DNA from: an uncultured bacterium
GTDB taxonomy: Bacteria > Verrucomicrobiota > Kiritimatiellia > CAIKKV01 > CAITUY01
Direction of reading: 5' to 3'
DNA: 64,000 bases
Assembly (NCBI GenBank): GCA_903895695.1
Contig: CAITUY010000047.1
Coordinates: 10,397-74,396 of the forward strand
Shown: positions 21,914 to 39,270 of the stretch, one piece after another
How the letters are laid out: the number at the start of each line of letters is the position of its first letter
Numbering within the stretch: position 1 is the first letter of the stretch
Position numbers and translations under genes: made by a program
Notes under the pieces: model-generated
What the model saw: only the letters and a program-made list of their open reading frames with translations
Told to the model about the DNA's origin: nothing
The model's database searches: none

Positions 21914-22108
21914 GGTCGACTATTCTCGTGACGGCAACTGATGGGATCGGGCTGTCCCTGCGACGCTTCGTTCAATCCCTATTCTCTATTCTTGGGCCTT
22001 CCAACCCCCGTACCCCTATCTTCTGTCTTCTCGGGCTGACACTGGCGCCCCATTATTCCACTTTGTCACCCTTGTCAGCACCCGACCCCACTCGCGGGCT
22101 ACACAGTT

Positions 22109-22444
22109 TCACACGAAGACCAACTGAAACAGAAGGAATGCAAGAAGAAGCACCGCAGGGCACAACGGGGATGCCTGCTCGCGGCGATACAGGGACATCA
22201 ACCACGCGAAACTTCCTGCAATGATCGAAACTATGGCGACAACATGGGCAGACGCTCCTGAGTGTATCTCCTTCTCAATGGTCAAGTGCAATTGATTTCG
22301 CTCCACAGAGGCGAGCGTAACGGATCTTGCGGCAAGCAAGGCACCGGCAGAGTCGTGACGTTTGCCTTCAATATCCACGATTATCGCGATCAGCAACAGA
22401 CTACAGGCCACCATGAACAACGGCTTCACGGGTGGGCACCTCAT
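22109..22444 (-). CDS. putative immunity protein (polytopic small membrane protein) for cassette 22441..23139
   Basis: ATGA start/stop overlap with the upstream toxin; 3 predicted TM segments. Confidence 0.45.
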   Translation of the reverse strand: MRCPPVKPLFMVACSLLLIAIIVDIEGKRHDSAGALLAARSVTLASVERNQLHLTIEKEIHSGASAHVVAIVSIIAGSFAWLMSLYRREQASPLCPAVLLLAFLLFQLVFV

Positions 22445-23139: not shown

Positions 23140-23240
23140 GGTCAGTGCGTCAGTTCATTTGCCGATTATCAAGATGCTGGGTGGTCGGCCCAGGTTCAAT
23201 TCGGGAAGCCCGTCCGGTCATAAATGGTCGGCAACAGTTT

Positions 23241-24742: not shown

Positions 24743-24757
24743 GGTCAGCGCGTCAGT

Positions 24758-25207
24758 TCATTCGTCAATTGTGGAAACATGCCCCTGTGGCTTCCGATCT
24801 CTCAGGTTGACGCTCATCAGATAATCCGTAATTGCGGGATTATCGCCACTCCGGGAGAACTCTTGGACTCGATCCCAATACCTCGATCCTTCTACTATCG
24901 CAAGAAGCGAACTAGCACGTTTCGACTTAGCTTCAATGAGTATCTGATAGACAGGGACAAGCAACAATGTTGCCGTCTCACGTTCACGTCGGTCTTTAGA
25001 ACGCAGTTTCGTCGTCAAATACCGAATTCCAGAATCGTTCACAAATGGGAGCACAAGTCTCGCGACTTCTGCCGCGTCAATCTCACCAGGAGACTTCCTC
25101 AAGGACCAGTAGTCATTCGCTTCTGACATGGCCTTGTCGTATCGGTGGGCCACACACCCTGTCATCACAATCCACAGAGGCAAGAGCAAGAACAGCGTCA
25201 TCTTCTT
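24758..25207 (-). CDS. putative immunity lipoprotein for cassette 25227..25889 (the six-frame ORF extends artefactually to 25546)
   Basis: Probable start MKKMTLFLLLPLWIVMTGC (lipobox LxxC) ~20 nt downstream of the toxin stop. Confidence 0.45.
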   Translation of the reverse strand, partial: KKMTLFLLLPLWIVMTGCVAHRYDKAMSEANDYWSLRKSPGEIDAAEVARLVLPFVNDSGIRYLTTKLRSKDRRERETATLLLVPVYQILIEAKSKRASSLLAIVEGSRYWDRVQEFSRSGDNPAITDYLMSVNLRDRKPQGHVSTIDE

Positions 25208-25226
25208 CATGGGGATTGGGTTCCTA

Positions 25227-25889
25227 CTAATTTGAATTAGTATCGTCCCAATCAGTTCCCAAGTCCTCGAACGGCGTACAGGTTTCGCCTTGGGGGCAAC
25301 ACTGGCTAGACTCACCCGTGGACTCAAAATGGTAGTACTGTTTGCCCCCTGGCCCTTTACCCAGGGAGACCTTAGTTTTGCGGTAGTGCCTCCAGAAGAA
25401 CCAATAACGGAAACTAATCCACATTTCTTTCGCAGGAGACATGCAGATGCATTGGTCCCAACCATACGGAATGCCAGGCCCGCCCGGCGAGATCTCCCCT
25501 CTGAATGATCTTGTCTTGCACTGGCCATCGCCCCCGCAAGTCGCACCCTCGCTTAAGCAGTACCGCTGAAGAGGAGCATTGTTACATGCACAACCGTTAT
25601 CCTGCATCACGAGGCCAAGCAGATCCCAACGAGATTCTCCATTGTTACTGAGAAAATCATAATCATTCGCCCCTCTGGAAACGGTCATGGCGTCAACCCG
25701 TTTGCGGACGCTCTGAGCCACAAATGCAAATTTGAAGAAAGTGTGCTCCCACATCGGATCCCGGCTGCACCAGCGACCCACGCCCGGCGAGAAGAAACGG
25801 AAACCAGATTCGCACCCGTTGAAACGGGGGTATGCGGTTTTCGCGGTACGCAAGGCCGTGCGTCCGAAGGGTGTGAGGGAGTAGCTCAT
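25227..25889 (-). CDS. orphan RHS C-terminal toxin cassette (Cys-rich CT)
   Basis: Leader MSYSLTPFGRTALRTAKTAYPRFNGCESGFRFFSPGVGRWCSRDPMWE…; CT rich in Cys/Gly (…GCACNN…CGGDGQCKT…QCICMSP…CCPQGETC). Confidence 0.6.
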   Translation of the reverse strand: MSYSLTPFGRTALRTAKTAYPRFNGCESGFRFFSPGVGRWCSRDPMWEHTFFKFAFVAQSVRKRVDAMTVSRGANDYDFLSNNGESRWDLLGLVMQDNGCACNNAPLQRYCLSEGATCGGDGQCKTRSFRGEISPGGPGIPYGWDQCICMSPAKEMWISFRYWFFWRHYRKTKVSLGKGPGGKQYYHFESTGESSQCCPQGETCTPFEDLGTDWDDTNSN

Positions 25890-25899
25890 GGTCAGCGCC

Positions 25900-26574
25900 C
25901 TACCAACTTCTCAACCACAGGTTCGATAGGAAATAGTCAGAGACGATCCCGCGTTGCGTGTAGTACACAGCCAAATACCAACCCTCCAATGCAGACGCCC
26001 CTCCCTCCGGATGACGGTTCTGAACGACATCCGCGAAACTCACGCATGCTTTGCCGATCCCCTTTTCCAGGCCATAGTCATCGGCATCAGGACCGAAGAT
26101 CGTCTTGATAGTCGACATACGCGTTCCAACACGCAGCGACTTACTGTCTAGTAGCGAAACACAGAATGCCAGCTTGTCGTGGCGGTTGCTGCATCCCAGG
26201 TACTGCACCTTCAGTATCTCCGCGCTGGTGTCGGCCTTCGTGAGGTGACCGTATACCTCGCCTAAGACGGGCGCCTTACTTACCGCCCTGACGGCATGTA
26301 TGCCTTCCGGACTTTGAACCGTGTCTTGACCCGCTGCATGGCGGGTGAGTGCCGCGCAACCAAAGCCAATCATAATCATGGCCGCAACTCCGCATGCGTC
26401 CAGCGCACACCGAAGTATCGTTGAGGCCAAGTGACCGTCACTATCTCGGTCAGTTGTCATCAGGCGTAGGTATCTGGTGTTTGGGCGTTTGAATGCAGGT
26501 GGCTCCGTATATGGTGGCAGGAAAGCCGGGGGGCTTCGGCATCTTTCTGCATATGGTGAACCATTGCTCTTCAC
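25900..26574 (-). CDS. putative immunity protein for cassette 26450..27235 (start likely internal, ~26460)
   Basis: Downstream partner ORF; signal/TM-like stretch ILRCALDACGVAAMIMIGFGCAAL. Confidence 0.4.
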   Translation of the reverse strand: MKSNGSPYAERCRSPPAFLPPYTEPPAFKRPNTRYLRLMTTDRDSDGHLASTILRCALDACGVAAMIMIGFGCAALTRHAAGQDTVQSPEGIHAVRAVSKAPVLGEVYGHLTKADTSAEILKVQYLGCSNRHDKLAFCVSLLDSKSLRVGTRMSTIKTIFGPDADDYGLEKGIGKACVSFADVVQNRHPEGGASALEGWYLAVYYTQRGIVSDYFLSNLWLRSW

Positions 26575-27235
26575 CAGGTCTGGCCATTTGGTCGGCGTAT
26601 ATGTAATAGCCCTTCTGGATCAGGACGTAGTTCCAGTATGAGTCATTATCGGTTCTTGCACTCGTGATCGCGTGACAACTCACGCCACCATCTGGAAGCT
26701 TCTTCGGTTCCCCATCCTTCCATTTCCCCTGTTTGGCCCACGTCAGGCAGCATGGTTTCGCCACGAGTTTTTTGCATTTCGCGCAGTCTTTTCGCGCATC
26801 GTCCTCGGTAAGCCAACACTTCGTGTCAGGCCAGTTTTCCGGCCAGAACTTGCCATCCCCAGCAATGCAGGTAACCCCAACGCAACCACGATCAAGTTGC
26901 CGCTTTACGTACGCATCCACGCTGACACCGTGGTCTTTTAACCAGTCCTCAAACTGGTCTCGGTCCATGTTGATACACTGATCCACAGGCGGTTCACTCT
27001 GTTGCTCACTGGGTTCTGAGGCCAGCCCGAGACGATCACGATAGCCCAGAGGTTGGTTGCTGAGGCATATGTATCGATTCATGCCATGTCTGGCACTAAT
27101 CGGATCCCTCGACGCCCACCTTCCCATCCCTGGCGAGAAGAAACGGAAACCAGATTCGCACCCGGTGAGACGGGGGTATGCGGTTTTCGATCTACGTAAG
27201 GCCGTGCGTCCGAGAGGTGTGATGGAGTAGGCCAT
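26450..27235 (-). CDS. orphan RHS C-terminal toxin cassette (Lys/Cys-rich CT)
   Basis: Leader MAYSITPLGRTALRRSKTAYPRLTGCESGFRFFSPGMGRWASRDPISARHGMNRYICL…DRLGL. Confidence 0.65.
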   Translation of the reverse strand: MAYSITPLGRTALRRSKTAYPRLTGCESGFRFFSPGMGRWASRDPISARHGMNRYICLSNQPLGYRDRLGLASEPSEQQSEPPVDQCINMDRDQFEDWLKDHGVSVDAYVKRQLDRGCVGVTCIAGDGKFWPENWPDTKCWLTEDDARKDCAKCKKLVAKPCCLTWAKQGKWKDGEPKKLPDGGVSCHAITSARTDNDSYWNYVLIQKGYYIYADQMARPGEEQWFTICRKMPKPPGFPATIYGATCIQTPKHQIPTPDDN

Positions 27236-27296
27236 GGTCAGCGGGTTAGAGCGTTTGCGTCTTGCGAGAATTGGTGCAGTTGCCTGTTGGCTTTAT

Positions 27297-27743
27297 TCAA
27301 TGTTCGACTTCCGCATCACCAAGGCCGGCTCCCGGCCGCTTGGCAGCGACACCAAACAAGCGAAGCAGGCCAATAATCTTGCTGTCGCGGACTACCTCAT
27401 CATCGGCTTCGCCCATAGATAGAACGACTCCACTCAAACTGCTCAGGGCCAAGGCCCAGAAGTCCCTGCCGCGGAGCCCATGAAGCACTTTGTCCTCAAC
27501 AGGAATCGACGCTTTCCCATGCTGAATGTCATCTGCCAGGTACCTGACGAGCGTCTCAGTTGCAGCACCTTTCGTGACCCCTTGCCGAAGCTGGACTGTC
27601 ACATAAAACGCATGGTGCATCACAACGCACCTCTCCCCTGAAAACAAGTCGTGCGGAGCCTGAGGCCTGGCGCTGTAACACCCTCCAAGCAGCAGAGCGA
27701 AGAGCAAAGGCGTGCCTTGCCGCAACAACCTTTGTTGATTCAT
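27297..27743 (-). CDS. putative immunity lipoprotein for cassette 27740..28492
   Basis: ATGA overlap with the toxin stop; lipoprotein signal LLFALLLGGC. Confidence 0.5.
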   Translation of the reverse strand: MNQQRLLRQGTPLLFALLLGGCYSARPQAPHDLFSGERCVVMHHAFYVTVQLRQGVTKGAATETLVRYLADDIQHGKASIPVEDKVLHGLRGRDFWALALSSLSGVVLSMGEADDEVVRDSKIIGLLRLFGVAAKRPGAGLGDAEVEH

Positions 27744-28492
27744 AGCTCATCGACCCCCAGTTGCACGCTGAACCATCCGCGGGGGGTGCCCTTCCACCGC
27801 ATGTATCCTTTCTTCGGTATGCTACTGGCATTCCACGTCGCAGTACCGGCAAAGCCCCACCATGTCTGTACTGATGGTGCCTCTTCGACATAGTCATGCG
27901 CCTGAAACCAATACGTTTGCGGACTAACGGGACGCGTTCGACTCACATCGGCGTTGTGCGGATCATCAGTAAGCCACCATCCTCCGTAGAATCCTGGATT
28001 GGGCTTAGCCGAACCGTAGTCATCAGGCAGGACTATATCGTCATTAGGAGGCGAGTCAGAATCGTCGCGCAACTCTGCGCCTTGGTGCAGATGACAGCCG
28101 CTGACATCGCCCCCTGCGCTATGGGTCACAACCGCCTTGACGCCGACACCGAAATCCCAAAGATACCCTGGCCTATTCGGATCTGTCGGTTGATATTTCA
28201 ACTCTCTCGTTGCGCTTGTCCAAGAGAGGTCGATTCGACAGTTGCCGGGGTCTATCGCACAGATGCAACACGCCTTCCTCAGGCCCAGATAATCTAGCGC
28301 AGTGTCCGGGCAGTTCCTAATGAAGCAAAGCAAGTTGCCTCCGCCTTTCTCGCCGATCGGATCGCGGCTCATCCAGCGTCCGATCCCCGGCGAGAAGAAA
28401 CGGAAACCAGATTCGCACCCGTTGAAACGGGGGTATGCGGTTTTCGATCTACGCAAGGCCGTGCGGCCGAGGGGTGTGAGGGAGTAGGCCAT
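27740..28492 (-). CDS. orphan RHS C-terminal toxin cassette
   Basis: Leader MAYSLTPLGRTALRRSKTAYPRFNGCESGFRFFSPGIGRWMSRDPIGEKGGGNLLCF…DYLGL. Confidence 0.65.
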   Translation of the reverse strand: MAYSLTPLGRTALRRSKTAYPRFNGCESGFRFFSPGIGRWMSRDPIGEKGGGNLLCFIRNCPDTALDYLGLRKACCICAIDPGNCRIDLSWTSATRELKYQPTDPNRPGYLWDFGVGVKAVVTHSAGGDVSGCHLHQGAELRDDSDSPPNDDIVLPDDYGSAKPNPGFYGGWWLTDDPHNADVSRTRPVSPQTYWFQAHDYVEEAPSVQTWWGFAGTATWNASSIPKKGYMRWKGTPRGWFSVQLGVDEL

Positions 28493-28556
28493 GGTCAGCT
28501 ATTCTCGTGGAGGAAACCAATACGATCAGGATGTCCTGCGACGCTGCGCTGAATCC

Positions 28557-29060
28557 TCATTCTGTATTCTTGGGTCTGCCCCGTGACTGCGCTTCTTCTG
28601 AAGCCGCAGCACCAAACCCATTGCCCTCAAGTCCAGGCGCTGACGATGTCACCACAGTGACGATATCGTCTTCCGTTCCGAAAACACGGTCGGGACCCGC
28701 CGATGACACCGTGCAGACATTCTGACGGACTTGGCACCTGAAGGGAGACCCCCACGGATCGGGTAATATGGCTTCCTCACGGGGCATCAGATCGGAGAGG
28801 GACTCGGGCCACTGCCCATGTCGAGCATGGTAGTCCGCCGCCACGTCGCCCAGCCGTTTCACGTAGCGCAGCACGCCTTCTGCTGCCTCTCTATTCCGTT
28901 GCGCCCTGACTGCTCTCACTGCATCGGCACTCCACAACCCAACGAGCCCAATGACCAGACACGCAACTCCGATCAGAAGCACGACTCGGTGTCTATTGAG
29001 CCATAAATGGATGGTTCCGCCCGCAGGGTCTGCGCACGTTTTACTGTCGGCCATAGGCAT
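28557..29060 (-). CDS. putative immunity protein with GspG/type-II-pseudopilin-like fold (degenerate, no GFTLIE motif); six-frame ORF extends to 29198
   Basis: TM helix VVLLIGVACLVIGLVGLW, then …AEGVLRYVKRLGDVAADYHARHGQWPESLSDLMP…LPDPWGSPFRC…SSAGPDRVFGTEDDIV, which parallels the GspG signature (…Y.LDNG.YP…GL.AL…DPWGNPY…S.G.DG..GG.G.DADI). Confidence 0.4.
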   Translation of the reverse strand: MPMADSKTCADPAGGTIHLWLNRHRVVLLIGVACLVIGLVGLWSADAVRAVRAQRNREAAEGVLRYVKRLGDVAADYHARHGQWPESLSDLMPREEAILPDPWGSPFRCQVRQNVCTVSSAGPDRVFGTEDDIVTVVTSSAPGLEGNGFGAAASEEAQSRGRPKNTE

Positions 29061-29814
29061 CGTGTAGCATCCATTCGTCTTCCAGCTCCCCGAACACCGA
29101 GAAACTCGGGTCCTGAAACAAGTTTCTCTTCCATGCATAGAAGTTGAGCCACCGTACCCAGATCCACTTGTTTGCCGGGTTGCCATCAGGCAAAACATTG
29201 AACGTGTAATACTTCGCCATCTTGACCGTCATCTTGCACGACCCCTCACACTCACATCGACCCTGTGAGTCAGCACACCCGCATCGCCATTTACAGTCGG
29301 CGAACAGTGACACCTGCCAGTTCCCCGCGTACGCAAGGCCAAACAACGATACGGCTGCCGGCATTACATCATCGAACACCTCTGCCGAATGCGGTGGTGC
29401 GGGCAATCGGATATTCTCGATTGCGGCGCCCATGCATCGAAACCGTGTTCCCAAAGCCTTTTCTACCGTCAATCGCCAATCCTTCATGTGCCACGACGTC
29501 TTAAGGCGAGAAAGCACGTCGTCTGAAAGTCTCCCGCCTTCTGGGGCGAACGAGAAGTAGTTGATGAACATCTGCCAAGGACCATCGAATGTCCACTCGA
29601 CCAACCCTGCGGGGTCGGCCCTATCCGGCGAGTCATTGGCACAGAAAACATATGCGTCGAGTCCGCCCATCTCCTCAAGCGGATCGCGGCTGATCCAGCG
29701 TCCGAGTCCCGGCGAGAAGAAACGGAAACCAGATTCGCACCCGGCGAGACGGGGGTATGCGGTTTTCGATCTATGCAAGGCCGTGCGGCCGAGGGGTGTC
29801 AGGTGGTAGGGCAT
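29041..29814 (-). CDS. orphan RHS C-terminal toxin cassette (six-frame ORF begins at 29925; conserved start at 29814)
   Basis: Conserved leader begins at the internal Met: MPYHLTPLGRTALHRSKTAYPRLAGCESGFRFFSPGLGRWISRDPLEEMGGLDAYVF…DPAGL; Cys-rich CT (CKWRCGCADSQGRCECEGSCK). Confidence 0.6.
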   Translation of the reverse strand: MPYHLTPLGRTALHRSKTAYPRLAGCESGFRFFSPGLGRWISRDPLEEMGGLDAYVFCANDSPDRADPAGLVEWTFDGPWQMFINYFSFAPEGGRLSDDVLSRLKTSWHMKDWRLTVEKALGTRFRCMGAAIENIRLPAPPHSAEVFDDVMPAAVSLFGLAYAGNWQVSLFADCKWRCGCADSQGRCECEGSCKMTVKMAKYYTFNVLPDGNPANKWIWVRWLNFYAWKRNLFQDPSFSVFGELEDEWMLHDAYGRQ

Positions 29815-30137
29815 GGTGAGGGTCCAGGTTCGTACGGCCAGCGCACGGTTCCCGATCCATATGGTGAGGTTATTACAGCCCCTCGACGGAGGAACACCGT
29901 CGTCTTCCATGCAACGCTGTCCCACTCTGTTGCAGGATGATGGGCACTCAGACTCATGATCCCATTCACATTTTCACCGATAGTCACGCTACCATCGGGA
30001 TCGCCCTCCAACTCGGCCGCATTCGTACCAGGAAACGTTATGCTCTGAACCACTCCATACAGGCGACCCTCTGACATGACGCGGTCACCGACGCAGACAA
30101 CCTCTCCCGTATGATACCGGAAGCAATCGCGCTTCAC
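29799..30137 (-). CDS. putative immunity protein (small beta-rich) for cassette 30134..30847
   Basis: ATGA overlap with the toxin stop; homologous in outline to 30909..31151. Confidence 0.45.
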   Translation of the reverse strand: MKRDCFRYHTGEVVCVGDRVMSEGRLYGVVQSITFPGTNAAELEGDPDGSVTIGENVNGIMSLSAHHPATEWDSVAWKTTVFLRRGAVITSPYGSGTVRWPYEPGPSPCPTT

Positions 30138-30847
30138 GGTGCGACACCTCCGCCAAGGATTGGTTCAACCCAAGGCCCTTCTCCCGGCCACGGCGTATCT
30201 CCACACGTCACATCCAACGCCAATGACTGTCGCTTGCAGGCACATGGTTCTGTCGGGTGCGTCACAGGGAGTTGCACAACATAGGCGTGGTGCGTGTGCG
30301 TGCCCGGACACCCGTGCCCAGCGACAAAACATGTCCTGTTCATTGTGTATCCCGCGAGCGGGATACATGGCAGACAAAACGGCAGATGCGGGACGGTCTT
30401 TGTCTGAGTTACCGTTTGCGGCACGGAGTTCACACCTGTATTCATGCATTGACAGTCCCGTTCCCGGTAAACATCGTATGTCTCGGTATAGGTTCCCGTC
30501 CGCGTGTACACCAAGTATGTCACGCCGCCGGCAATGAGCGTGCCAGCAGCCACCCATGGACCCCATTCCGGCAATGTGACGCCTGCAAGAATCTCAGCAC
30601 AGATCTCCCCTATAGTTGGTATTGCGATTCCCGCCTGGCCCAAGGGATCAAGGAGGAATATGGGGGTGTTCTGAACGAACGCGTACCGGTTGACTCCGCC
30701 ACTCTCCGCAACCGGATCGCGCGACGCCCACCTTCCTAGCCCTGGCGAGAAGAAACGGAAACCAGATTCGCACCCGTTGAAACGGGGGTATGCAGTTTTC
30801 GATCTACGCAAGGCCGTGCGGCCGAGAGGTGTGAGGTGGTAGGCCAT
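30134..30847 (-). CDS. orphan RHS C-terminal toxin cassette (CT with hydrophobic segment; paralogous to 31175..31822)
   Basis: Leader MAYHLTPLGRTALRRSKTAYPRFNGCESGFRFFSPGLGRWASRDPVAESGGVNRYAF…DPLGQ; CT shares CLPCIP…H.H…C.CK…GP…GGG(V/I)AP* with the next cassette. Confidence 0.6.
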   Translation of the reverse strand: MAYHLTPLGRTALRRSKTAYPRFNGCESGFRFFSPGLGRWASRDPVAESGGVNRYAFVQNTPIFLLDPLGQAGIAIPTIGEICAEILAGVTLPEWGPWVAAGTLIAGGVTYLVYTRTGTYTETYDVYRERDCQCMNTGVNSVPQTVTQTKTVPHLPFCLPCIPLAGYTMNRTCFVAGHGCPGTHTHHAYVVQLPVTHPTEPCACKRQSLALDVTCGDTPWPGEGPWVEPILGGGVAP

Positions 30848-30908
30848 GGGTAGCTGCAGGCACCGCGCCCTGCCTGATCGTTCATTGCTGCTTCGCGTGA
30901 TTCATCAC

Positions 30909-31174: not shown

Positions 31175-31822
31175 CTAAGGCGCAATGCCTCCGCCCTGAG
31201 CAGGGCCGGCTTCCGGTGCCAAAACCCCAGGCAATGGGTCGGGCAGTACCTCTTTCCAGAAACACTTGCACCCTCCGACTGCCGGACTCTGCAACATCAC
31301 TAGCATGTGGGAATGCGGCGTGGGAATTCCGTTGTGGGCTGGCGAGGGCGGCAAGTCCACGCGATACGCAATGGACCCAACGACTGGTAGGCACGGCAGA
31401 CACCCTTGAGTTCTTCGTTTACAGCGGTCACATCTCTTCATTGCCTCCGCAATACCATCCGCTACGGCGTCCGCGAAACTTGCTGCGGCCGCTGCAATAT
31501 CGTGGAGTGTTTGTTGTCCTGCAGGCGATTGCGCCCAGGCTTCGGCGGTCACACACACCGCAATGGTCCCGATTACCAAGAGTACGACTGCGTCATCCGC
31601 TATTACAATTCGTCCATCCTTGTCGTTCTTATCCGTGGGGTTGTTCGACACGAAGCCATAGAGATTCCGCCCCCCGAGTTCTCCCATAGGATCGCGTGAA
31701 ATCCACCTCCCTGTTCCTGGCGAGAGGAAACGGAAACCAGATTCGCACCCGCTGAGTCGGGGGTATGCGGTTTTCCATCTACGCAAGTCCGTGCGTCCGA
31801 GGGGTGTCAGGTGGTAGGACAT
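31175..31822 (-). CDS. orphan RHS C-terminal toxin cassette (paralogous CT to 30134..30847)
   Basis: Leader MSYHLTPLGRTDLRRWKTAYPRLSGCESGFRFLSPGTGRWISRDPMGELGGRNLYGFVSNNPTDKNDKDG. Confidence 0.6.
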   Translation of the reverse strand: MSYHLTPLGRTDLRRWKTAYPRLSGCESGFRFLSPGTGRWISRDPMGELGGRNLYGFVSNNPTDKNDKDGRIVIADDAVVLLVIGTIAVCVTAEAWAQSPAGQQTLHDIAAAAASFADAVADGIAEAMKRCDRCKRRTQGCLPCLPVVGSIAYRVDLPPSPAHNGIPTPHSHMLVMLQSPAVGGCKCFWKEVLPDPLPGVLAPEAGPAQGGGIAP

Positions 31823-32220
31823 GGTTAGAGGGTAAGATCGTCCAGCGATATCAGTCTTGTTTCAGCGACGTTCTGCGATGCCATTTCGTCCAGCAACTAC
31901 CATCCCGGCCTCGCCCCCGACTGCGGTTCACGCTCCCGCCCCGTAGATTATGCGGCCGGTCGGGGCGCTCACTTCCGCCCCAGCCGCCGACAACTCCACC
32001 AGCCCCAACCACCGTTGAAATGTTCATCCGAACAGGTCCGTCGCGCCGACGCCACAACGATCAGTTCTGTTTAGGGTACGGGAGCGCGGCGGCGGAAAAG
32101 CGGCTGTTTTGTAGTAACCCATGGGACGAAGTCCTTATGGGTGGGATTCTAGGAAAGAGGGGGCACGGAAGAAAGGCAAATCAGGCAAAAAAGTGGGCAA
32201 AAAACGGGGAGGCGGAAACC

Positions 32221-32436
32221 TCAACCCGGCGTCGGAGTTTGGCCCTTGGCCCGGTCGAATATCTCGTCCACCGTCTGCCCGTCGTAGAGGCGCCGGGAGA
32301 CATCCACGTAGTCGGTCGGTTCGCGGTGGATCAGGGTGAGAAACCGAAACGCACCTGTTGCACCCAAGGCCTTGTTGAGGACCTCAATGCCGCTCAGGCG
32401 CAGTTCGTTATCGGTCATGACTTGGCTTGTGCTCAT
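32221..32436 (-). CDS. small protein downstream of the PIN gene, possible antitoxin/partner
   Basis: 71 aa, 5 nt after the PIN-domain ORF on the same strand; no family recognised. Confidence 0.3.
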   Translation of the reverse strand: MSTSQVMTDNELRLSGIEVLNKALGATGAFRFLTLIHREPTDYVDVSRRLYDGQTVDEIFDRAKGQTPTPG

Positions 32437-32440
32437 ATCC

Positions 32441-32938
32441 TCACCATCTCTTCTGCACGTAGTCTACAGGATTAATGACCAGAAGCGCAACCGGCAAACG
32501 GCCAGCCTTGGACACGATCTCGTCATCACAGGTCACAAACCACGCTGCTTTCGCGTGTTCGGCAGCAGCAACGTGCAAGGCATCCTTGGCCGACAGCCCC
32601 GCCACGGCCTGAATCCGAGCCGCGGATATGCGAATGGGTTCTTCTGGGCCTATTCGGACGCGGCAGATTGCGGCAAGGCGGACGACTTCCTGTGCACGGT
32701 CAACGAAAGGACACACCCGGTTCTCGTCCTCGTGCATAAACGACCACGCCAATTCCACCTCACCGTTCTCGGCATCCTCGAAGATCTTCTCGCAGGCTTC
32801 CGCCTCCAAACGGATACGATGCTGCCGGGAGTCGTCAAACCCCCGCTGGAAGCAGTTGTAGTCGAGATAGATGAGTTCCGCCATGTCGAGTACCCCGTGC
32901 CGAACGTGGTTACGATAGTATGGACTCTTCCTGGTCAC
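32441..32938 (-). CDS. PIN-domain protein (VapC-like ribonuclease candidate); likely start MAELIYLDYN (~32881)
   Basis: N-terminal MAELIYLDYNCF… and acidic residues spaced as in PIN/VapC folds. Confidence 0.45.
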   Translation of the reverse strand: MTRKSPYYRNHVRHGVLDMAELIYLDYNCFQRGFDDSRQHRIRLEAEACEKIFEDAENGEVELAWSFMHEDENRVCPFVDRAQEVVRLAAICRVRIGPEEPIRISAARIQAVAGLSAKDALHVAAAEHAKAAWFVTCDDEIVSKAGRLPVALLVINPVDYVQKRW

Positions 32939-33896
32939 AAGCCTCTTTCTCCCTTGGATGGCACTTGCGGTGGGTCTCTTTGAGGTCGGTGATGGTGAGC
33001 TTGGCGTAGTGCTTGAGCGTCTCCAGCGACTCGTGGCCGAGCAGTTCCTTCACGTGGTACATGCCGGCCCCGGCCCGCAACAGCTCGGTCGTGCAACTGC
33101 GGCGGAAAGTGTGGGGCGTGACGTTGACGTCGATGCGGGCCTGTTCGGTCAGCCGGTGCACAAGTTTGAGGAAGACGCCGTACTTGACCCGCTCGCCCGC
33201 CGCGGTGACGAAGAGGGCCTGCTCGTCGCCCGTCGGGAATGCTGGCCTGACTCCTTTGACGTACCCTTCGAGGTAGTGCATGGCCGTGCGGCCGATCGGC
33301 ACCATGCGTTCCTTCTGGCCCTTGCCTTTGACGCGGGCCAGCCCGTGGGCGTAGTCGACGTCGCCCAGGTCCAGCCCCAGCAGTTCCGAGACCCGCGCCC
33401 CGCTCGAATAGACCAGTTCCAGCATGGCCCGGTTGCGGTAGCCCTCCGCCCCGTTGGTCGGCACCACGTCCAGCAGCCGCCGCACTTGCTCGTGGGTCAG
33501 CACGCTGCCCGGCAGGGTCTTGGGCTCCTTCACGTACTCGATGCCGTCGGACAACCGCGACTGGATATGGCCCTGCACGGCCAGGTACTTGAGGAACGAG
33601 CGCAGTTCCTGGACTTGCTTGTTGATGGTGCGGGGGTTGAGCGGCCGCCCCTTGCGGGTCCGCCGCCGGGACAAATGTCCCTGCCAGCGCTGGAGGTGGC
33701 TGGCCCGCAACAGGTCGGGCGAGTACACGCCCACCGTCACCCCGAGCCACTGCGCCCAGTTCCGCAGGTCGTTGTTGGCCTGCTTGCGCGTCCAGGCGCT
33801 GAAGTTGAGCGCGCCCAGGTGCCGCACGTATTCGTCCAGTAGTTCGAGGAAAGTCGTCATAGTCGCATCCTCACGATCCCGGTTTGCTCCGGGCAT
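32910..33896 (-). CDS. tyrosine site-specific recombinase (XerC/D-phage integrase family)
   Basis: C-terminal catalytic signature …VTPHTFRRSCTTELLRAGAGMYHVKELLGHESLETLKHYAKL (R…HxxR…Y); N-terminal SAM-like core-binding domain. Confidence 0.8.
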   Translation of the reverse strand: MPGANRDREDATMTTFLELLDEYVRHLGALNFSAWTRKQANNDLRNWAQWLGVTVGVYSPDLLRASHLQRWQGHLSRRRTRKGRPLNPRTINKQVQELRSFLKYLAVQGHIQSRLSDGIEYVKEPKTLPGSVLTHEQVRRLLDVVPTNGAEGYRNRAMLELVYSSGARVSELLGLDLGDVDYAHGLARVKGKGQKERMVPIGRTAMHYLEGYVKGVRPAFPTGDEQALFVTAAGERVKYGVFLKLVHRLTEQARIDVNVTPHTFRRSCTTELLRAGAGMYHVKELLGHESLETLKHYAKLTITDLKETHRKCHPREKEACDQEESILS

Positions 33897-34827
33897 GAAC
33901 CGCCTGCAATTCCGTGATCGTCAGGCGCAGGTACTGGGACAGGTGACTGAACGAGGCATGGCCGAGGAGCATCTGCAGGTCCACCGGGTGGGCGCCGCGG
34001 CGCAACATGTGCGTGGCGCAGGCCCGCCGCAAGCTGTGCGGCGTGATGCGCGTCTGCACGCCCGAGTCGCGTCCATGCCTCACGATGCCGAGCCGGATGG
34101 CCACATATCCGAGCGGCTTTCCATACTGCGTCACCCAGAGCTCAGGCGGCCTGCCGCCCGCGGCCGTCCTCTTCCCGACCTCGGCCTCGTACCGCCGCAG
34201 CCACTCCACCGCCTGGGCGCCCAGCGGCAGGACCCGCTCCCGCTCGCCCTTGCCCATCACGCGCACGGTCCCGTTCACCATGTCCACGTCCCGGACCATA
34301 AGCCGGGACAGTTCCTCGACGCGCATGCCCGTGCCGTAGGCCGTCTCCAGGATGGTCCGATCGCGCAGTCCCGTGTAGGTCGTGGTGTCCGGCGTCGCCA
34401 GCAGGCTCGTCATCTCCTCCTCGGTAGGCACCGGCATGATGGGCGACTGAATCTTGCGGATCACGATGCCCTCCGCCGGGTTGCAGAACACTTCCTGCGT
34501 CTGCTCCAGCCAGCGGAAGAACTGCTTGATGGCACGGATGAAAACCTCCACCGAGGCGGGCTTCCACTGCCGGTCCACCATGCCGGCGCGGTATTCCTCG
34601 ATGTCCGAGCGCGTCACGTCCATGGCCCGCACGATGCCCTTACCATCCAGGAACGCGCAGAACCGTTCCAGCGCCTGCGTATAGATCTCGACGGTCCGCC
34701 GGCTGTACCGCCGTGAGGCCACGCGCTCGGCGTAACGCCTGACGAGTACGGCTACACGACTACTGCTACGACTATGTGTTGCATCCATATGCGCTCCCCG
34801 CACCACTTTCGACCAGGTTATTGCCAT
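33871..34827 (-). CDS. tyrosine site-specific recombinase (second, overlapping the first)
   Basis: …ITPHSLRRACATHMLRRGAHPVDLQMLLGHASFSHLSQYLRLT; overlaps the downstream recombinase by ~25 nt, consistent with translational coupling. Confidence 0.8.
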   Translation of the reverse strand: MAITWSKVVRGAHMDATHSRSSSRVAVLVRRYAERVASRRYSRRTVEIYTQALERFCAFLDGKGIVRAMDVTRSDIEEYRAGMVDRQWKPASVEVFIRAIKQFFRWLEQTQEVFCNPAEGIVIRKIQSPIMPVPTEEEMTSLLATPDTTTYTGLRDRTILETAYGTGMRVEELSRLMVRDVDMVNGTVRVMGKGERERVLPLGAQAVEWLRRYEAEVGKRTAAGGRPPELWVTQYGKPLGYVAIRLGIVRHGRDSGVQTRITPHSLRRACATHMLRRGAHPVDLQMLLGHASFSHLSQYLRLTITELQAVHARSKPGS

Positions 34828-37147
34828 CCGCCTGCATTTGAGGCACTTGGACCGATTCCACGGGGTGGCCAGGTGCTGACCACCCTGTGACCACCCCCGC
34901 CGCTGCCATCGAGGTGGCCTGTCCGTCGTACGCCAGGCGGTAACGGTAGGTGAGCCCGACGCGCCCGGCCACGGTCAGGACGAACTCCATCTCGACCAAC
35001 TGCTTGAGGTAACGGCGCACGCGGAGATGGGCCCAGCCGGTGAACTCGCGGATCTCCCGGCGGGAGAACACCACGTCGCCGGGCACTTCCACGCCATCGC
35101 GCCCCTCCCGCCGCTGTTGCTCGATCCTGCCGGCCACCATGCGTTCGATGTGCATCAGCAGGTCCAGGCTCACCCGGTTGAGGTCGTCCAGGCTCTTGCC
35201 CAGGATCTCCCGCGCCAGCCCGTCGGCAACGGCCAGGTCCGCCGCTTCCACCTCGATGTAGTCCCGGCCCTCGTCCTGCCGGACCTGCTTCGACATCTGC
35301 CGCAGGAACGCCACGGCCCGGATCAGGTTCAGGTACTTAGGCTGGTCGCGCCGGCTCTGCAGTCGGTCGTCGCCGTAGCAGAGCTGTTCGGCGAACGGGT
35401 TGACCACCTTGACGGGTTTCAACAGCCGCTGGAAGTTGCGGTGTAACCGCAGCGTCGCCTCACGCCCCCCGCGCTCCTTCTCGCCATCGAGGGTTTGGCG
35501 CCTGCGTTGGCAGGCGAGGATCGCCCGGGTCTGCTCCCGGCTCTCGTCCACACTCGTTACGAAGAACCGACTGCGGGTCTCGGGGTCGGTCTCGGGATCG
35601 GTCGTTGTGATGAAGACCGCGGTCGGGCCTTCCACGCGGTTCACCGCGGTCGTGAGCTTGCCGGTGGCGAAGTCCTTGACGGTCACCTCGATCACCAGTT
35701 CCCCGGCCGAGATCAAGTTGCGGATCGCGTACGTGGCGTCCTCCGCCCCCGCCCCTTCCTCCAAGGCGAGGATCTTGTGCTTGAGGCTCTGCCGGGCCTT
35801 GTAGAAGAGCGCCTTACCGGACAGGCTCGTCAGCTTGACCGAGTCCTCCGGCGGACAGAACGCGAGCGTCGCGTCCTGCAGCGCCGACTTGCCGGCGCCC
35901 GAACTGCTTAGGATCAGCACGGACAGCGGATGGTCGGTCTTCCGGCTGACGGCGGCCAGGTAGCAGAGCAACTTGTTGACCTCCTCGCCCACGAGCCCGC
36001 ACGCGGCGTAGTCGGCGACGATACGTTCGATCAGGTCCGGGCTGCGCCCGAAGGCTTCCGCCTCCCGGCGCTCCTCCTCCGGGATGTCGACCGTCTCACC
36101 CGCGTCCGCGGCCGACGCAGACGGCACGTGGGTTTCGCAACAGCGGATCAGCCGCACCAGGTCCGCCTCGATAGCCTCGGTGGTCTCCTCGAAAAACCGG
36201 CACAGATCCTGGGCCAGCGTTTTGCGGGCCTTGGCCGAGTAGAAGTCGAGCGTGTCCACGTGCAGTCGGCCGGCGTGCTCTGTCCTGAGCGTCGCTCGCA
36301 GCCGCCTTGGTCCCTTGTCGATCCCGCGCAACTCATAGCGGCGGCGGTCGAGCCGCACGCGGAACCCGTCGGGTATGGGCTCAGTCGCCGAGTCCGGCCC
36401 GGCTGACGGCTGCCCGGTGTCGAATTCGGCCAGGGCCGCATCCACGAGCGCGGTGACGCGCGGGAGTCCGTCGCGCAGGAGGACGGCATTGAGCGGCTCG
36501 GCAAGCGGACAGGCCCGGATGGCGACCGGCAATCCCGAGAAGGTTTCCCGCAGTGAGTCGGCATTGACGGCCAGGCACGCGAGTCGCTGTACGCCGCTCG
36601 CGCGGATCGCCTGGCGGTCGCGCGCGGTGAGACGGCCCTCCGGCACGGCGACGGCGTTGGGATACCCCGCCTTCTGGAGCGTGAGAGCGTCGAGGATGTC
36701 CAGCGTCGCGAGCACCTCCCCATGGGTGCGGAACACGGGTGCGTTCCAGAGCCCCGTGGCGACGCCCGGCAGGTGGACCGCCTTCCCGGTCGCCATGCAA
36801 AGGCCCGCAAGCCCGATCGCCAAGCCCTCGACATCCGCCAGCGGGAAGACGACGCAGTCGCGGAACCGCTCCTTGCCGGACTCATCGAGGATGTTCATCG
36901 ACCTGAGTACGTCGCGGATGCCGCCCTGGCGTGGCAGCGTCCCGACAAGTTTCCCCGTGGCGCAGCCGATCCGGAACTGACCGGCCAGGTCGGAATCGTT
37001 CAGGCCATGGCGGGCAAGAAAGCCCGGCCCTTCCGGCTCCTTGGTCAGCGTCTCGTGGTAGAACCCCGCGACCTTCTCCCACAGGGCCGCCTGCTCACAA
37101 AGCGGACCTCCCTCCGGCCTTCGTGGCATGTCCGTCCTCCCGTTCAT
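34772..37147 (-). CDS. large P-loop NTPase, putative TOPRIM primase/replication-type protein of the integrative element (six-frame ORF extends to 37273)
   Basis: Walker A LSSSGAGKSALQDATL; N-terminal region with a possible TOPRIM-like E…DxD arrangement (ADVEG…DILDALTL); operonic with a Zn-ribbon protein and two tyrosine recombinases. Confidence 0.4.
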   Translation of the reverse strand: MNGRTDMPRRPEGGPLCEQAALWEKVAGFYHETLTKEPEGPGFLARHGLNDSDLAGQFRIGCATGKLVGTLPRQGGIRDVLRSMNILDESGKERFRDCVVFPLADVEGLAIGLAGLCMATGKAVHLPGVATGLWNAPVFRTHGEVLATLDILDALTLQKAGYPNAVAVPEGRLTARDRQAIRASGVQRLACLAVNADSLRETFSGLPVAIRACPLAEPLNAVLLRDGLPRVTALVDAALAEFDTGQPSAGPDSATEPIPDGFRVRLDRRRYELRGIDKGPRRLRATLRTEHAGRLHVDTLDFYSAKARKTLAQDLCRFFEETTEAIEADLVRLIRCCETHVPSASAADAGETVDIPEEERREAEAFGRSPDLIERIVADYAACGLVGEEVNKLLCYLAAVSRKTDHPLSVLILSSSGAGKSALQDATLAFCPPEDSVKLTSLSGKALFYKARQSLKHKILALEEGAGAEDATYAIRNLISAGELVIEVTVKDFATGKLTTAVNRVEGPTAVFITTTDPETDPETRSRFFVTSVDESREQTRAILACQRRRQTLDGEKERGGREATLRLHRNFQRLLKPVKVVNPFAEQLCYGDDRLQSRRDQPKYLNLIRAVAFLRQMSKQVRQDEGRDYIEVEAADLAVADGLAREILGKSLDDLNRVSLDLLMHIERMVAGRIEQQRREGRDGVEVPGDVVFSRREIREFTGWAHLRVRRYLKQLVEMEFVLTVAGRVGLTYRYRLAYDGQATSMAAAGVVTGWSAPGHPVESVQVPQMQADGNNLVESGAGSAYGCNT

Positions 37148-37157
37148 GTCGCCAACC

Positions 37158-37574
37158 CTAGGCGCGAATTTCCCAACGGGCCACGAAGTTTTGTAACGTA
37201 AGACCCACATCGCGCCAGACCCCACGCCAGTCGCGGATTCCCGCGATAACGACGTGTCGTAACGCAAAACCATCCAAGTCTCGGAACCTCACACCGACCG
37301 TGTTTTGACCGGCGCGATGAATTGGAAGCAGAATGTCCACCGTGAACGCCTTCCGCCTGTCCTGCCGCCAGTAGAACGGATGAAGCCGCCGCCAGGCCTG
37401 GCTGCGGTCGATGTCCTTCTTGAAGTGGTCGGGGTTCTTCCGCCGCCATTGCCGGCAGTTCTCCCGGTTACGCGCCCGCTGGCACACCCGACGCGGGCAG
37501 TACCGCTGGTGCCAGGCGTTGTGGGGTTCAGGCTGGAACAACTTCCGGCAATGCGGGCAGCGCAGCGGTTTCAT
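37158..37574 (-). CDS. small Zn-ribbon (CxxC…CxxxxC) DNA-binding-like protein
   Basis: MKPLRCPHCRKLF…YCPRRVC; basic; first gene of the element operon. Confidence 0.4.
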   Translation of the reverse strand: MKPLRCPHCRKLFQPEPHNAWHQRYCPRRVCQRARNRENCRQWRRKNPDHFKKDIDRSQAWRRLHPFYWRQDRRKAFTVDILLPIHRAGQNTVGVRFRDLDGFALRHVVIAGIRDWRGVWRDVGLTLQNFVARWEIRA

Positions 37575-37966
37575 GAGTCGACCTCCTTTGGCCCCGCGTC
37601 AGACGGAGCGGGGGAATCGCCATACCTTAGGGGGAAGTCAATACGACAGGAGCCGCTGCCGACGCGAGAGCGGCAATGGCGGGATTCGTCCGGACGAGAG
37701 GTAGGCAACGCCTATTCCGTCAGCCAGGCCACCAACCGAGCCGTAGACCCGGATGAGCCCTATGACCGCACCGGTAAATCGGGGGAGGAACAAAAGAAGG
37801 ATCATCCGTCCGACGCCGGCGTAGTCATCGAACTGTTACGACGAAGCCGACAAGAAACATCGCACGACGGAACCGGGGATTCCTACGACCGTAGCGCTGG
37901 AATCAAGGTCGTTTCCAGCAGGTTTAATTCGGAAACCGCGTGCGACGGCAATTCGGTCGACAGTAG

Positions 37967-38467
37967 TTAACGTCGCAGGCGATCTGCAAGGCGCGTTCTG
38001 ATGCTCTGCCATGTCTGCCGGTCCACGTTTCGCCTTGAGCCGGTTTCATCAATGGCGGTTAGTTCCGGGTGCCACACCGGACACATGATCCGAACGCCTT
38101 CGGGTGTGTTTGTGAAGTATAGATATGTGATTCTTAGTGAAGTGGCCCCATTGCTTGGTCCCACCCACGGAGCCTCGATCTTCTCGAATTGCGGACTGTT
38201 CGCTAGGGCACAGGAGAAAATCCACGTTCGATTCGTTGCAAGCGGGAGAAGGTCGGAAAGACTGGCGGGGCGGACGCCGTGCGCTTCTTCATACTGTCGG
38301 CAGAGTTCCCCTAAAGCCAGGGTATTCGCTGCGCAAAGTTGGTAGAGCGCGCCATGGGTGCTCCTCTCTCGCCGAATATACAGGCACTGCCCTATGGCGA
38401 ACCAGCACAGGACAGCAAACACAAAGACGGACAAGAGCGACTTGATGACGGACGATGGAGAAGGCAT
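37967..38467 (-). CDS. putative immunity protein, pseudopilin(GspG)-like, for cassette 38470..39270
   Basis: Starts 3 nt after the toxin stop; N-terminal TM LLSVFVFAVLCWFAIG; shares …Y..HG..P.SLSDL(L/M)P with 28557..29060. Confidence 0.4.
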   Translation of the reverse strand: MPSPSSVIKSLLSVFVFAVLCWFAIGQCLYIRRERSTHGALYQLCAANTLALGELCRQYEEAHGVRPASLSDLLPLATNRTWIFSCALANSPQFEKIEAPWVGPSNGATSLRITYLYFTNTPEGVRIMCPVWHPELTAIDETGSRRNVDRQTWQSIRTRLADRLRR

Positions 38468-38469
38468 CG

Positions 38470-39270
38470 CTATTGCCTCCTTCTGTCACGCCCTCCCCCA
38501 CCCGGCCAAGTCGGTCCCAAGCCGGAATTGCAGTATTTCTGGTCGCACGGCTTGCAGTCTGCATAGCGATCATCGGCCGGGACACTCCCGGAGCTGGGAA
38601 ATCCGTTGAACCCGGCCTTGGCAAAATCTATGGAATTAGCCACTTCCGGCCAGTCCGATGGCTGAAACGACTTCCAGGCGACGATAGCTGCCTCCATCTG
38701 CACTGTCGAGGCGTCGCACAACTTCGCCATCCATCCGAATAGAGCGTAGTTGACTGACCACTTCCAGTAGCAACTACCATTCACGGTCACGGACTCGGAG
38801 CACTTGCGGCCGAAGGGACACTGCGAAACGCCATCGGCACCTCGGATACGAGGATCGGCCCAGACCAGACTGGCCAGATCCCACCCACCGAATGCAAAGT
38901 CCGGGGACTGTGTCCAGTCCTTAAAGAACGGATCACAATTCGAAGCAGCACGTTTCGGGTCTGTCTGCTTCAGATCGTTGAAACGCTGTTCAACCTGCGT
39001 CTTCGATGCCTTCAATCCATCCGTAACGTCTGGCCCGCATTTCCAGCACGACTTGTTGAACCACCAATCCCACATGGTGGATAAACCGAAAGGGTCGTAC
39101 TTAGACAAAGGTTCGTTAAGCGCGAACCCGTATAGGTTGTAGTCGCGGTTAATCGTACGCCTGCGGTTATGCGCTCTGAATCCAAGTTCGCGGATGGGAT
39201 CACGACTCATCCATCTCCCGGTCCCTGGAGAGAAGAAAATGAGTCTATAATACGGAATATACGTTACCAT
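38470..39270 (-). CDS. orphan RHS C-terminal toxin cassette with degenerate/replaced 5' leader (Cys/Trp-rich CT)
   Basis: MVTYIPYYRLIFFSPGTGRWMSRDPIRELGFRAHNRRRTINRDYNLYGFALNEPLSKYDPFGLS… keeps the GRW.SRDP…NLYGF…DPxGL tail, but the first ~25 codons are replaced by an AT-rich sequence. Confidence 0.5.
   Translation of the reverse strand: MVTYIPYYRLIFFSPGTGRWMSRDPIRELGFRAHNRRRTINRDYNLYGFALNEPLSKYDPFGLSTMWDWWFNKSCWKCGPDVTDGLKASKTQVEQRFNDLKQTDPKRAASNCDPFFKDWTQSPDFAFGGWDLASLVWADPRIRGADGVSQCPFGRKCSESVTVNGSCYWKWSVNYALFGWMAKLCDASTVQMEAAIVAWKSFQPSDWPEVANSIDFAKAGFNGFPSSGSVPADDRYADCKPCDQKYCNSGLGPTWPGGGGRDRRRQ
39228..39270 (-). promoter_or_regulatory. AT-rich segment with sigma70-like -35/-10 (TTGAAT-N16-TATTAT on the minus strand) at the head of the array
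   Basis: Minus-strand sequence TTGAATGGTAACGTATATTCCGTATTATAGACTC is ~30% GC in a ~65% GC background. Speculative; promoter consensus in this lineage is unknown. Confidence 0.2.

Follow-up and report, generated by a model that had tools for sequence, protein, structure and literature searches.

A recombinase and primase/helicase-like gene module within an RHS toxin cassette array of an uncultured Kiritimatiellia bacterium: a candidate toxin-tip cassette element

In polymorphic toxins of the Rhs and CdiA families new C-terminal tips displace old ones, which are left downstream as orphan toxin/immunity modules, and the junctions lie at conserved coding motifs, namely the RHS core end or, in CdiA, VENN (Jackson 2009; Poole 2011; Koskiniemi 2014, PMC3967940). 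This classical displacement is ascribed to horizontal transfer and homologous recombination and involves no dedicated machinery. The published ideas nearest to the locus described here are the rAID arrays of Bacteroidales (PMC12247911) and the XerC/D genes that adjoin polyimmunity loci (Zhang et al. 2012, PMC3482391). Here we analyze a stretch of 64,000 nucleotides, called the window, from contig CAITUY010000047.1 of an uncultured Kiritimatiellia bacterium, in which six genes at 32221-37574, among them two tyrosine recombinase genes and one gene for a large DnaG/MCM-like protein, lie within an array of orphan RHS toxin cassettes. We read these six genes, the module, as the core of a toxin-tip cassette element that recombines site-specifically inside a toxin gene, and put the probability of this reading at roughly 55%.

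The likeness to rAID arrays lies in a tyrosine recombinase that stands by a co-oriented array of short toxin-related genes, in motifs between the cassettes and in an array GC content below that of the genome, and in both cases the origin of the arrays is unexplained. However, rAID arrays, known from Bacteroidales, combine a single recombinase with mostly orphan immunity genes and lack a primase/helicase gene (PMC12247911), whereas the window element, compared here by description and from different phyla, has two paralogous recombinases and a DnaG/MCM-like protein. Its cassettes, unlike those of rAID, are toxin tips that keep the RHS core end, the motif overlaps the toxin frame, and a full-length rhs gene often stands before the array. 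The module has a GC content of 66-69%, similar to that of the rest of the window, and the array that flanks it (about 20.5-33 kb and 37.6-39.3 kb) one of 55-58%. Classical displacement differs in lacking both a recombinase/replicase module and a leader that is not of rhs origin, and here the breakpoint lies about 45 codons before DPxGL. A description of this module was not found in full-text literature searches, to which subscription journals were closed, so that a prior description is possible; a paper on the Bryopsis chloroplast in which rhs, primase and recombinase are all named was unrelated.

The module consists, as originally predicted, of six co-directional open reading frames (ORFs) on the minus strand, the strand of all window features given below unless stated otherwise. 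The first encodes a Zn-ribbon protein (37158-37574; 138 residues; C6/C9/C26/C31 in the pattern CxxC...CxxxxC, with a basic tail), which is possibly a DNA-binding accessory factor. It is followed by the large ORF (34772-37273; 833 residues), whose homologues begin at M43 (coordinate 37147), the likely true start, which gives a protein of 791 residues, in agreement with the 790-residue P-loop protein first proposed, and then by two Xer-like recombinases, recombinase 1 (33871-34827; Phage_integrase E 9e-35; R-K-H-R-H-Y intact) and recombinase 2 (32910-33896; Phage_integrase E 2e-37; catalytic residues intact). The last two genes encode a PIN-domain protein (32441-32938; Pfam PIN E 9.7e-6, just above the cut-off) and, at 32221-32436, a protein of 71 residues, the presumed PIN partner, of which a 35%-identical homologue follows the PIN gene in the related locus L001 (related loci are numbered L001 and onward). 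Searches of Pfam and NCBIfam gave no significant match for the Zn-ribbon protein or the 71-residue protein. The PIN gene and its small partner are probably an addiction module, with PIN as the toxin, in a cargo slot between recombinase 2 and the first cassette leader, because this slot holds other toxin-antitoxin pairs in relatives. PIN and a small ORF occupy it in the window, L001 and L013; L003 has a Schlafen/AlbA_2 protein there, L004 an unnamed pair of 88- and 126-residue genes and then NTase/HEPN, and Enterobacter and Lonsdalea have DinJ/RelE. A 6774-bp ENA scaffold (L062) is 100% identical to window positions 32206-36638, which reach from the 71-residue ORF into the middle part of the large gene; from 36638 on it continues with ClpS and isocitrate/isopropylmalate dehydrogenase genes, and at the other end it stops at 32206, the start of the repeated leader region. 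Either the scaffold is a chimera made in assembly or the genome has a second, truncated copy at another place.

Both recombinases, about 305-320 residues long, belong to the tyrosine recombinase superfamily, as they align with XerD (1a0p) at all six catalytic residues, R148, K172, H244, R247, H270 and Y279. They are paralogues of about 33% identity. When they were compared with NCBIfam models the best were XerC and XerD, with scores of 198 (XerD model) and 194 bits for recombinase 1 and of 214 and 219 bits for recombinase 2. These scores are below the curated equivalog cut-offs of 335 bits for XerC and 330 bits for XerD, and therefore the two proteins are Xer-like and not orthologues of either; nor are they IntI proteins, as the integron-integrase model gave 82-83 bits against a cut-off of 265 bits. 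The overlap of about 25 nucleotides between the two genes that had been noted earlier is found with the longer start of recombinase 2, whereas gene calls on an identical contig place its start at M13, which turns the overlap into a 10-nucleotide gap.

The RHS core-end motif was searched for with a hidden Markov model (HMM) trained on the orphan ORFs of the window, and the window was found to hold ten motif-bearing ORFs and one remnant, that is, an array of RHS orphan toxin cassettes. Nine intact orphan heads lie downstream of the module. The first has leader and core at 31719-31827 (leader 31737-31827, ending in the 14 nucleotides GGGTGCGAATCTGG at 31737-31750, and then TTTCCGTTTCCTCTCGCC at 31719-31736), and eight more, each again with leader and core, lie within 21779-30853 with their ATGs at 30847, 29814, 28492, 27235, 25889, 24742, 23139 and 21913. 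Between these copies the leader, of about 90 nucleotides, is 89% identical, the next 18 nucleotides at the junction are 99% identical and the RHS codons beyond are 69% identical. Variable sites by codon position number 9/29, 7/29 and 9/28 in the leader, which shows no periodicity, and 5/10, 3/10 and 9/10 in the RHS end, which does. The core common to the orphan cassettes of the window is GGGTGCGAATCTGG TTTCCG TTTC, and the 24-mer GGGTGCGAATCTGGTTTCCGTTTC is invariant in all nine heads. The head at 23139 (22979-23144) is the sole length variant among the nine, with an in-frame insertion of 27 nucleotides in its leader (CGTACCTCGCCGGAGTACGCGTACGAA). Iterated nhmmer searches found the leader in other loci also, as three boxes (CCATGGGCTAC..., GAAAACCGCATACCCCCG and ...GGGTGCGAATCTGG), and the large proteins of the loci that share it are only about 50% identical to that of the window. 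Six leader sequences or strands folded no better than shuffled controls (z +0.5 to +1.3), and for this reason the leader is not attC-like; an Rfam search of the array found no known RNA family.

Leader and core are thus conserved at the level of DNA, and the cassettes have a common breakpoint. In full-length rhs genes (L001, L003, L008 and L048) homology with the orphan heads starts only from '...GG' onward, and it starts at the same place in leaderless RHS-end heads on shorter ORFs (L004, L006, L009, L021 and L034) and at window positions 39227-39252. Upstream of this point the rhs-type sites carry rhs coding sequence (LYYYG) where the cassettes carry the leader. Leader-only remnants are joined to unrelated DNA at that same point in the window, in L004, twice in L055 and in L011. 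The remnant of the window, at the far end of the array (20486-20582), loses homology after ...GAATCTGG and continues into unrelated DNA (20486-20505), the upstream region of a GntR-type gene; that of L004 is followed by an NTase/HEPN pair and then by a complete head, and one in L006 retains about 14 extra nucleotides, through the right arm. The six bases after GG vary among loci (TTTCCG, GTTCCG, TCTTCG, CCACAG, CCACCG), and when rhs-type and leader-type sites of the same locus were compared this 6-nucleotide center was identical in L004, L006 and L008 and differed by one base in L003. A left arm (GGTGCGAATCTGG), a 6-nucleotide overlap region and a right arm (TTTCTTCTCGCC, consensus WTTYYTC) suggest the pattern expected of a tyrosine-recombinase core, the arms being putative recombinase arms. 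Of the 11 positions of the XerC arm of E. coli dif the left arm GGTGCGAATCT shares 8, a likeness that is only suggestive.

The same arrangement was looked for in other genomes in a survey that took one genome per species and gave 57 loci, all in metagenome-assembled genomes, from Verrucomicrobiota, Kiritimatiellia, Victivallales/Lentisphaerae, Planctomycetota, Desulfobacterota, Fermentibacteria, Fibrobacteria, Gammaproteobacteria and others. Wherever the contig was long enough the order of large protein, recombinase 1 and recombinase 2 was kept, an arrangement whose conservation, judged from these sequences, is far beyond chance. All 54 RHS core-end motifs found in related loci were on the strand of the module. 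Where at least 3 kb of upstream flank was available the motif was found upstream in 16 of 20 loci, in 7 of which an rhs ORF of more than 800 residues, running off the contig, lies directly upstream; where at least 3 kb of downstream flank was available a motif or leader was found in 13 of 14 loci, the fourteenth having an LHH nuclease and a SUKH immunity gene. In all relatives the first leader comes 0.1-1.6 kb after recombinase 2. In view of this recurrent co-directional linkage the module is not a random insertion and travels with polymorphic-toxin cassettes. When L001 and L003 were compared, the rhs core was 87% identical exactly up to the site and the module was 80% identical, and the tip, the immunity gene and the cargo differed. 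In a Victivallales chromosome (L043, OY787460) three RHS cassettes stand between two modules of the same orientation, at 1-153 and 13846-13998, a distance of about 14 kb. In a Verrucomicrobiota genome (L012; 12508-15204 and 1178-8837) there are three tandem recombinase genes and not two, and several module-less cassettes are preceded by repeated fragments, 87-230 nucleotides long, of the 3' end of the last recombinase gene, which suggests that these cassettes are deletion derivatives of full units.

The original prediction had seen in the six genes a foreign insertion that splits the toxin array. Since the module recurs co-directionally in or next to toxin arrays in most related loci and in many phyla, it belongs to the array, either as the machinery of the array or as an autonomous member of it. 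It had also been said that a fixed syntenic place of these genes in related genomes would speak against mobility; such a place is found, but in form only, as the genes are linked to unrelated tips and to different rhs genes, and this in different phyla, which argues for co-mobility and not for ancestral synteny. The suggestion that the element may mobilize adjacent toxin cassettes, on the other hand, gains support from the linkage, the common site and the breakpoint. An empty site was sought in metagenomes by way of the flanking GntR-type gene and only relatives of 62% identity, with no synteny, were found.

The limits first proposed for the element, 32221-37574, proved too narrow, as the real unit is larger and includes a toxin tip and a probable immunity gene. 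The tip is an orphan RHS C-terminal toxin ORF of 266 residues (38470-39270) with its core-end motif at 39082-39252 (HMM positions 27-71), and the ORF directly after it (37967-38467; 166 residues) is, from this position, the candidate immunity gene. At the head of this upstream cassette lies an RHS-type site (39227-39252; TATTATAGACTCATTTTCTTCTCTCC) with no leader and about 8 RHS-like codons upstream, which matches positions 90-139 only of the nhmmer model. Upstream of the Zn-ribbon gene there is a conserved non-coding block (37765-37941, strand not assigned) with 74% identity to L001 3896-4078; in that locus the block is separated from the module by an inserted IS256-family transposase. At the other end a terminator-like hairpin with a T-run (32209-32222) comes directly after the 71-residue ORF, and after the cargo slot there is a degenerate leader copy with a conserved block (32087-32190; box A CCCATGGGTTACTAC at 32111-32125), a region 81-82% identical to the post-cargo regions L001 11956-12052 and L004 8694-8770. 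We propose, from the sequence, that the ends of the unit are the RHS-type site at 39227-39252 on the left and the leader and core at 31719-31827, which are also the head of the next cassette, on the right; the best reading is then a self-contained unit of about 31737-39246 that carries its own toxin tip and immunity gene and has half of the recombination site at each end. Terminal repeats were looked for in the flanks, as first suggested, but around 31823-32220 and 37575-37966 only short direct or inverted matches at chance level were found, and the ends coincide instead with a site common to all cassettes. No tRNA is present within the window. A Pfam search of the cassette toxins, the tip of the unit included, and of the immunity genes gave nothing significant, and only 3 homologues of this tip were found, all of them short proteins and none a full-length rhs gene. 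The order of toxin ORF and immunity gene is repeated on independent ENA scaffolds. In two ENA contigs of about 1.49 kb (L076 and L077) the candidate immunity gene lies between two partial ORFs of 164 residues on opposite strands, which looks like a palindromic assembly artefact. A full-length rhs gene was not found in the window, and the array is in this sense headless.

The N-terminal half of the large protein is a genuine DnaG catalytic core by family profile against PDB (E 1e-21), and an AlphaFold model built from 120 homologues (pLDDT 82.7) also matched the DnaG core in this half (E 1e-9). The C-terminal half of the model is an MCM-like AAA+ domain that fits MCM2-7 subunits best (E 1e-10), with ORC, RuvB and SaPIbov1 Rep as weaker fold matches and a winged helix at the end; the protein also has an OB-like beta domain and the Walker A sequence GAGKS. 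Together with the Phage_integrase matches this bears out the view of a recombinase-based element with a replication-type protein. The protein is also placed in PF27228 (MTBMA_p00010_2nd), a family named after a Methanothermobacter plasmid protein, by way of its close homologues, all of which carry a precomputed match. GAGKS and LEE (Walker A and B) are invariant in the family. The earlier description of the N-terminus as TOPRIM-like was right as to the fold, but the window protein lacks the Toprim glutamate, the DGDxxG motif and the zinc finger and cannot be called a DnaG-type primase by its motifs. Among the 120 homologues there is a long form (61, median 893 residues) that keeps the Toprim glutamate and DGDxxG and in which Pfam annotates a CHC2 zinc finger, and a short form (54, median 780 residues), the window protein included, that has lost all three and has intact Walker motifs. 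Of 17 short-form, primase-dead loci 12 have a Zn-ribbon gene before the large gene, as compared to 0 of 14 long-form, primase-intact loci. The family is large, with 7,877 clusters at 50% identity that reach E 1e-3 and 1,529 that reach 1e-30, and no homologue was found in the phage records searched.

Relatives also occur in cultured bacteria. In PLSDB replicons homologues of the large protein with 33-41% identity are each paired with a single XerC-like gene. In the megaplasmid of Ralstonia solanacearum Po82 a full rhs gene, the large protein, the recombinase and rhs orphans follow in this order. In P. aeruginosa pPA1609-475 and Enterobacter pJBIWA003_2 the module comes after CdiA-type toxin genes, and the Enterobacter plasmid has a perfect 7,685-bp tandem repeat that starts exactly at the VENN codons of a CdiA-like gene; in Janthinobacterium it comes after a giant FG-GAP protein and before Imm26-type genes. 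Among 5,426 complete E. coli genomes 60 carry relatives of the module, with a median of four chromosomal copies, and E. coli EC77 has at least 4 tandem units after vgrG-rhs, which each comprise a tip, an immunity gene, SymE, HTH, primase and XerC genes and a short piece of rhs. One EC77 unit is matched at 98% identity by a circular 'plasmid' of 8,758 bp from Shigella flexneri, and a circular Lonsdalea plasmid of 11,289 bp has genes for the large protein and XerC together with DinJ/RelE and two orphan toxin/immunity cassettes. These circular records are supportive but not decisive because assemblers can turn tandem repeats into circles. The proteobacterial units of Lonsdalea (L066), E. coli (L070) and Shigella (L071) each have a divergently transcribed helix-turn-helix (HTH) regulator, and many proteobacterial units have a gene for a SymE-family toxin or a VbhA-type antitoxin between the immunity and primase genes; the window lineage lacks the HTH, SymE and VbhA-type genes and has the Zn-ribbon gene in that position.

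The sequences themselves show the gene content, the linkage to toxin arrays, the common orientation, the conservation of leader and core as DNA and the common breakpoint; from these we infer recombination, a division of labor between the recombinases, replication by the large protein and a gene-drive effect, as follows. The two Xer-like recombinases would act jointly on an asymmetric site, of which the right arm and the 6-nucleotide center lie in rhs codons for 'G-x-R-F-F' and the left arm is formed by rhs coding sequence in a full-length gene and by the last part of the leader in a cassette. The unit, or a module-less cassette, would be excised as a circle, and the circle would re-insert in frame into an rhs gene, which would thereby gain a new toxin tip and immunity gene. 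The old tip would be displaced downstream with a leader now in front of it, and repeated rounds would build a co-directional orphan array. The large protein may serve as initiator and helicase of the circular form; because the primase center is dead in the window, priming by the host, or a purely DNA-binding or helicase role, is assumed. The PIN gene and the 71-residue ORF may stabilize the element, and the module-less cassettes may be passengers or deletion derivatives, the latter being favored by L012.

A wider reading is that this is a widespread selfish element, found from Verrucomicrobiota to E. coli, which as a small replicating circle with its own Xer-like recombinase or recombinases inserts in frame into RHS/CdiA genes, re-arms the weapon of its host and has element-free cells killed in a gene-drive-like manner, with module-less cassettes as integron-like passengers, and that it is the missing mechanism behind C-terminal displacement and orphan arrays. 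This is a tentative proposal, to which we would give somewhat less than even odds. If it were true, C-terminal displacement and orphan arrays, so far ascribed to unspecified horizontal transfer and homologous recombination, would become directly testable, with relatives at hand in genetically tractable E. coli, Ralstonia and P. aeruginosa. It would account for the breaking of metagenome assemblies at these loci, it would provide a marker for unfamiliar toxin/immunity pairs such as the window cassettes, which have no recognizable domains, and it would add a natural in-frame, site-specific gene-swapping system.

Several observations weigh against site-specific recombination of such an element inside toxin genes. 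For the window lineage no empty site, circular junction or split read was found, and complete related contigs, those of 7.7-8 kb included, had neither overlapping termini nor repeats at their ends; the circular 'plasmids' could have arisen from tandem repeats in assembly. The upstream RHS motif is missing in 4 of the 20 loci (L018, L019, L036 and L038). In L018 and L038 a Pfam search of the upstream genes gave no toxin explanation, and in L019, from Candidatus Brocadia, the motif was not found within 10 kb upstream and the module is preceded at 5261-9388 by JAB, ThiF, a TraG/VirD4-type coupling protein, Replic_Relax and a double zinc ribbon protein, so that this locus may be a conjugative or mobilizable carrier. 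In L001 the center of the main-gene site differs from that of its orphans at 3 of 6 positions. Although the leader shows no constraint at the level of amino acids, its ATG, in box A (CCATGG), keeps the frame of the RHS end and the toxin ORF in every leader-bearing family examined (the window, L001, L003, L004, L006, L008, L020 and L031), which means that a coding or translational constraint coexists with the signal at the DNA level, and selection may also act on the translation of the orphans, perhaps for the expression of the immunity gene that follows. The common breakpoint could in part mark an ancestral fusion of leader and RHS end and not every exchange. Finally, as the primase center is dead and no full-length rhs gene was found in the window, this copy may not be autonomous.

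The main rival is integration of a plasmid by homologous single crossover. Here a plasmid that carries a toxin tip, with the large protein as its Rep, would enter the toxin gene by RecA-dependent exchange, and the recombinases would only resolve multimers or help excision. The Ralstonia orphan, which retains 1.1 kb of rhs core at 95% identity to the main gene, is as expected of homologous and not of site-specific integration and counts against our reading; small circular plasmids with the large protein, XerC and orphan tips would fit as well, as would recombinases that are closest to XerC/D, the classic multimer resolvases, while the tandem identical units of Enterobacter and E. coli suit either mechanism. 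What such a plasmid does not explain is that in the window lineage cassettes and rhs-type sites share only about 18-30 identical nucleotides, too short for efficient RecA exchange, that leader-only remnants meet unrelated DNA at one fixed nucleotide, which homology-driven exchange cannot achieve, and that the core is invariant even at third codon positions. Two conserved paralogous recombinases also exceed what multimer resolution needs. We therefore consider this route improbable, though less so than the alternatives that follow.

A domesticated integron-like platform, which could apply to this primase-dead, headless copy, is less probable still. In such a platform an immobile module would excise, capture and reorder module-less cassettes in trans, and these would supply tips for an rhs gene elsewhere or form a store of immunity genes, as has been proposed for rAID. 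The nine module-less cassettes with intact leader and core are what it would lead one to expect, as are a module whose GC content is like that of its surroundings beside cassettes of 55-58%, the loss of primase motifs in about half of the family with ATPase and recombinases intact, and the absence of a full-length rhs gene from the window. But the module lies between the same sites as any cassette and should itself be excisable, modules are found at variable array positions and in tandem (L043, L012 and E. coli), and the cassettes of L012 look like deletion derivatives of full units. That an ordinary integrative element, an integrated plasmid or satellite, came to lie in the toxin array by chance, as first proposed, is very improbable, for although a replication protein, tyrosine recombinases and an addiction pair are typical of such elements and the Brocadia relative adjoins a coupling protein and relaxase, the association with toxin cassettes upstream and downstream holds across phyla, the orientation agrees in every motif, and there is neither a tRNA target nor terminal repeats, the ends coinciding with a repeat common to all cassettes.

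The toxin-tip cassette element that we favor may also be set beside other systems. With integrons it would share a tyrosine-recombinase platform, co-directional and individually bounded cassettes and, as proposed here, circular cassette intermediates. Unlike in integrons, its sites do not fold into hairpins, a cassette would be inserted in frame within a gene, the recombinase genes are part of a cassette and run in the direction of the array, and there is a replication protein. Elements that exploit Xer recombination (CTX-phi type IMEX and the gonococcal genetic island) and the pdif modules of Acinetobacter resemble it in having modules bounded by sites and in what we propose to be Xer-type recombination at a short asymmetric site, but they use host XerC/D with dif or pdif, whereas the window element encodes its own pair and has its site in a toxin gene, and the right arm of the window site is unlike the XerD arm. 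PICI/SaPI, tycheposons, prophage-encoded MCM-primase fusions and archaeal plasmids of the pME2001/pTN3 type likewise combine an initiator/helicase with one or more tyrosine recombinases and have circular and integrated states; these replicons, however, have tRNA or intergenic att targets and other cargo, and to our knowledge in-frame insertion into polymorphic-toxin genes has been reported for none of them. Several adjacent tyrosine recombinase genes are found in Tn554 and RIT elements too, and the original prediction had rightly set the module apart from both on gene number and sizes, to which the lack of terminal inverted repeats can be added. By description, Tn554 has recombinases of 361 and 630 residues, and in the module no TnpC-like gene was recognized and the large replication protein is extra; RIT elements have three recombinases and flanking inverted repeats and the window element has two and none, but its relative L012 has three.

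Some features lie at the margin of the array or outside it. Exact-protein look-ups of the flanking regulator and of one orphan toxin found none on record. This regulator is of the GntR/periplasmic-binding type (19396-20577), and its longest ORF starts with 31 codons of cassette leader. Its real start is probably further downstream, with the helix-turn-helix from residue 49, and automatic annotation would give it a false N-terminus. Two minus-strand ORFs outside the array (45972-51929 and 14305-18993) are both very large and without RHS repeats. One, of 1985 residues, is glycine-rich and has G8 and InlB B-repeat-like domains, and the other, of 1562 residues, has a weak GATase1-like match.

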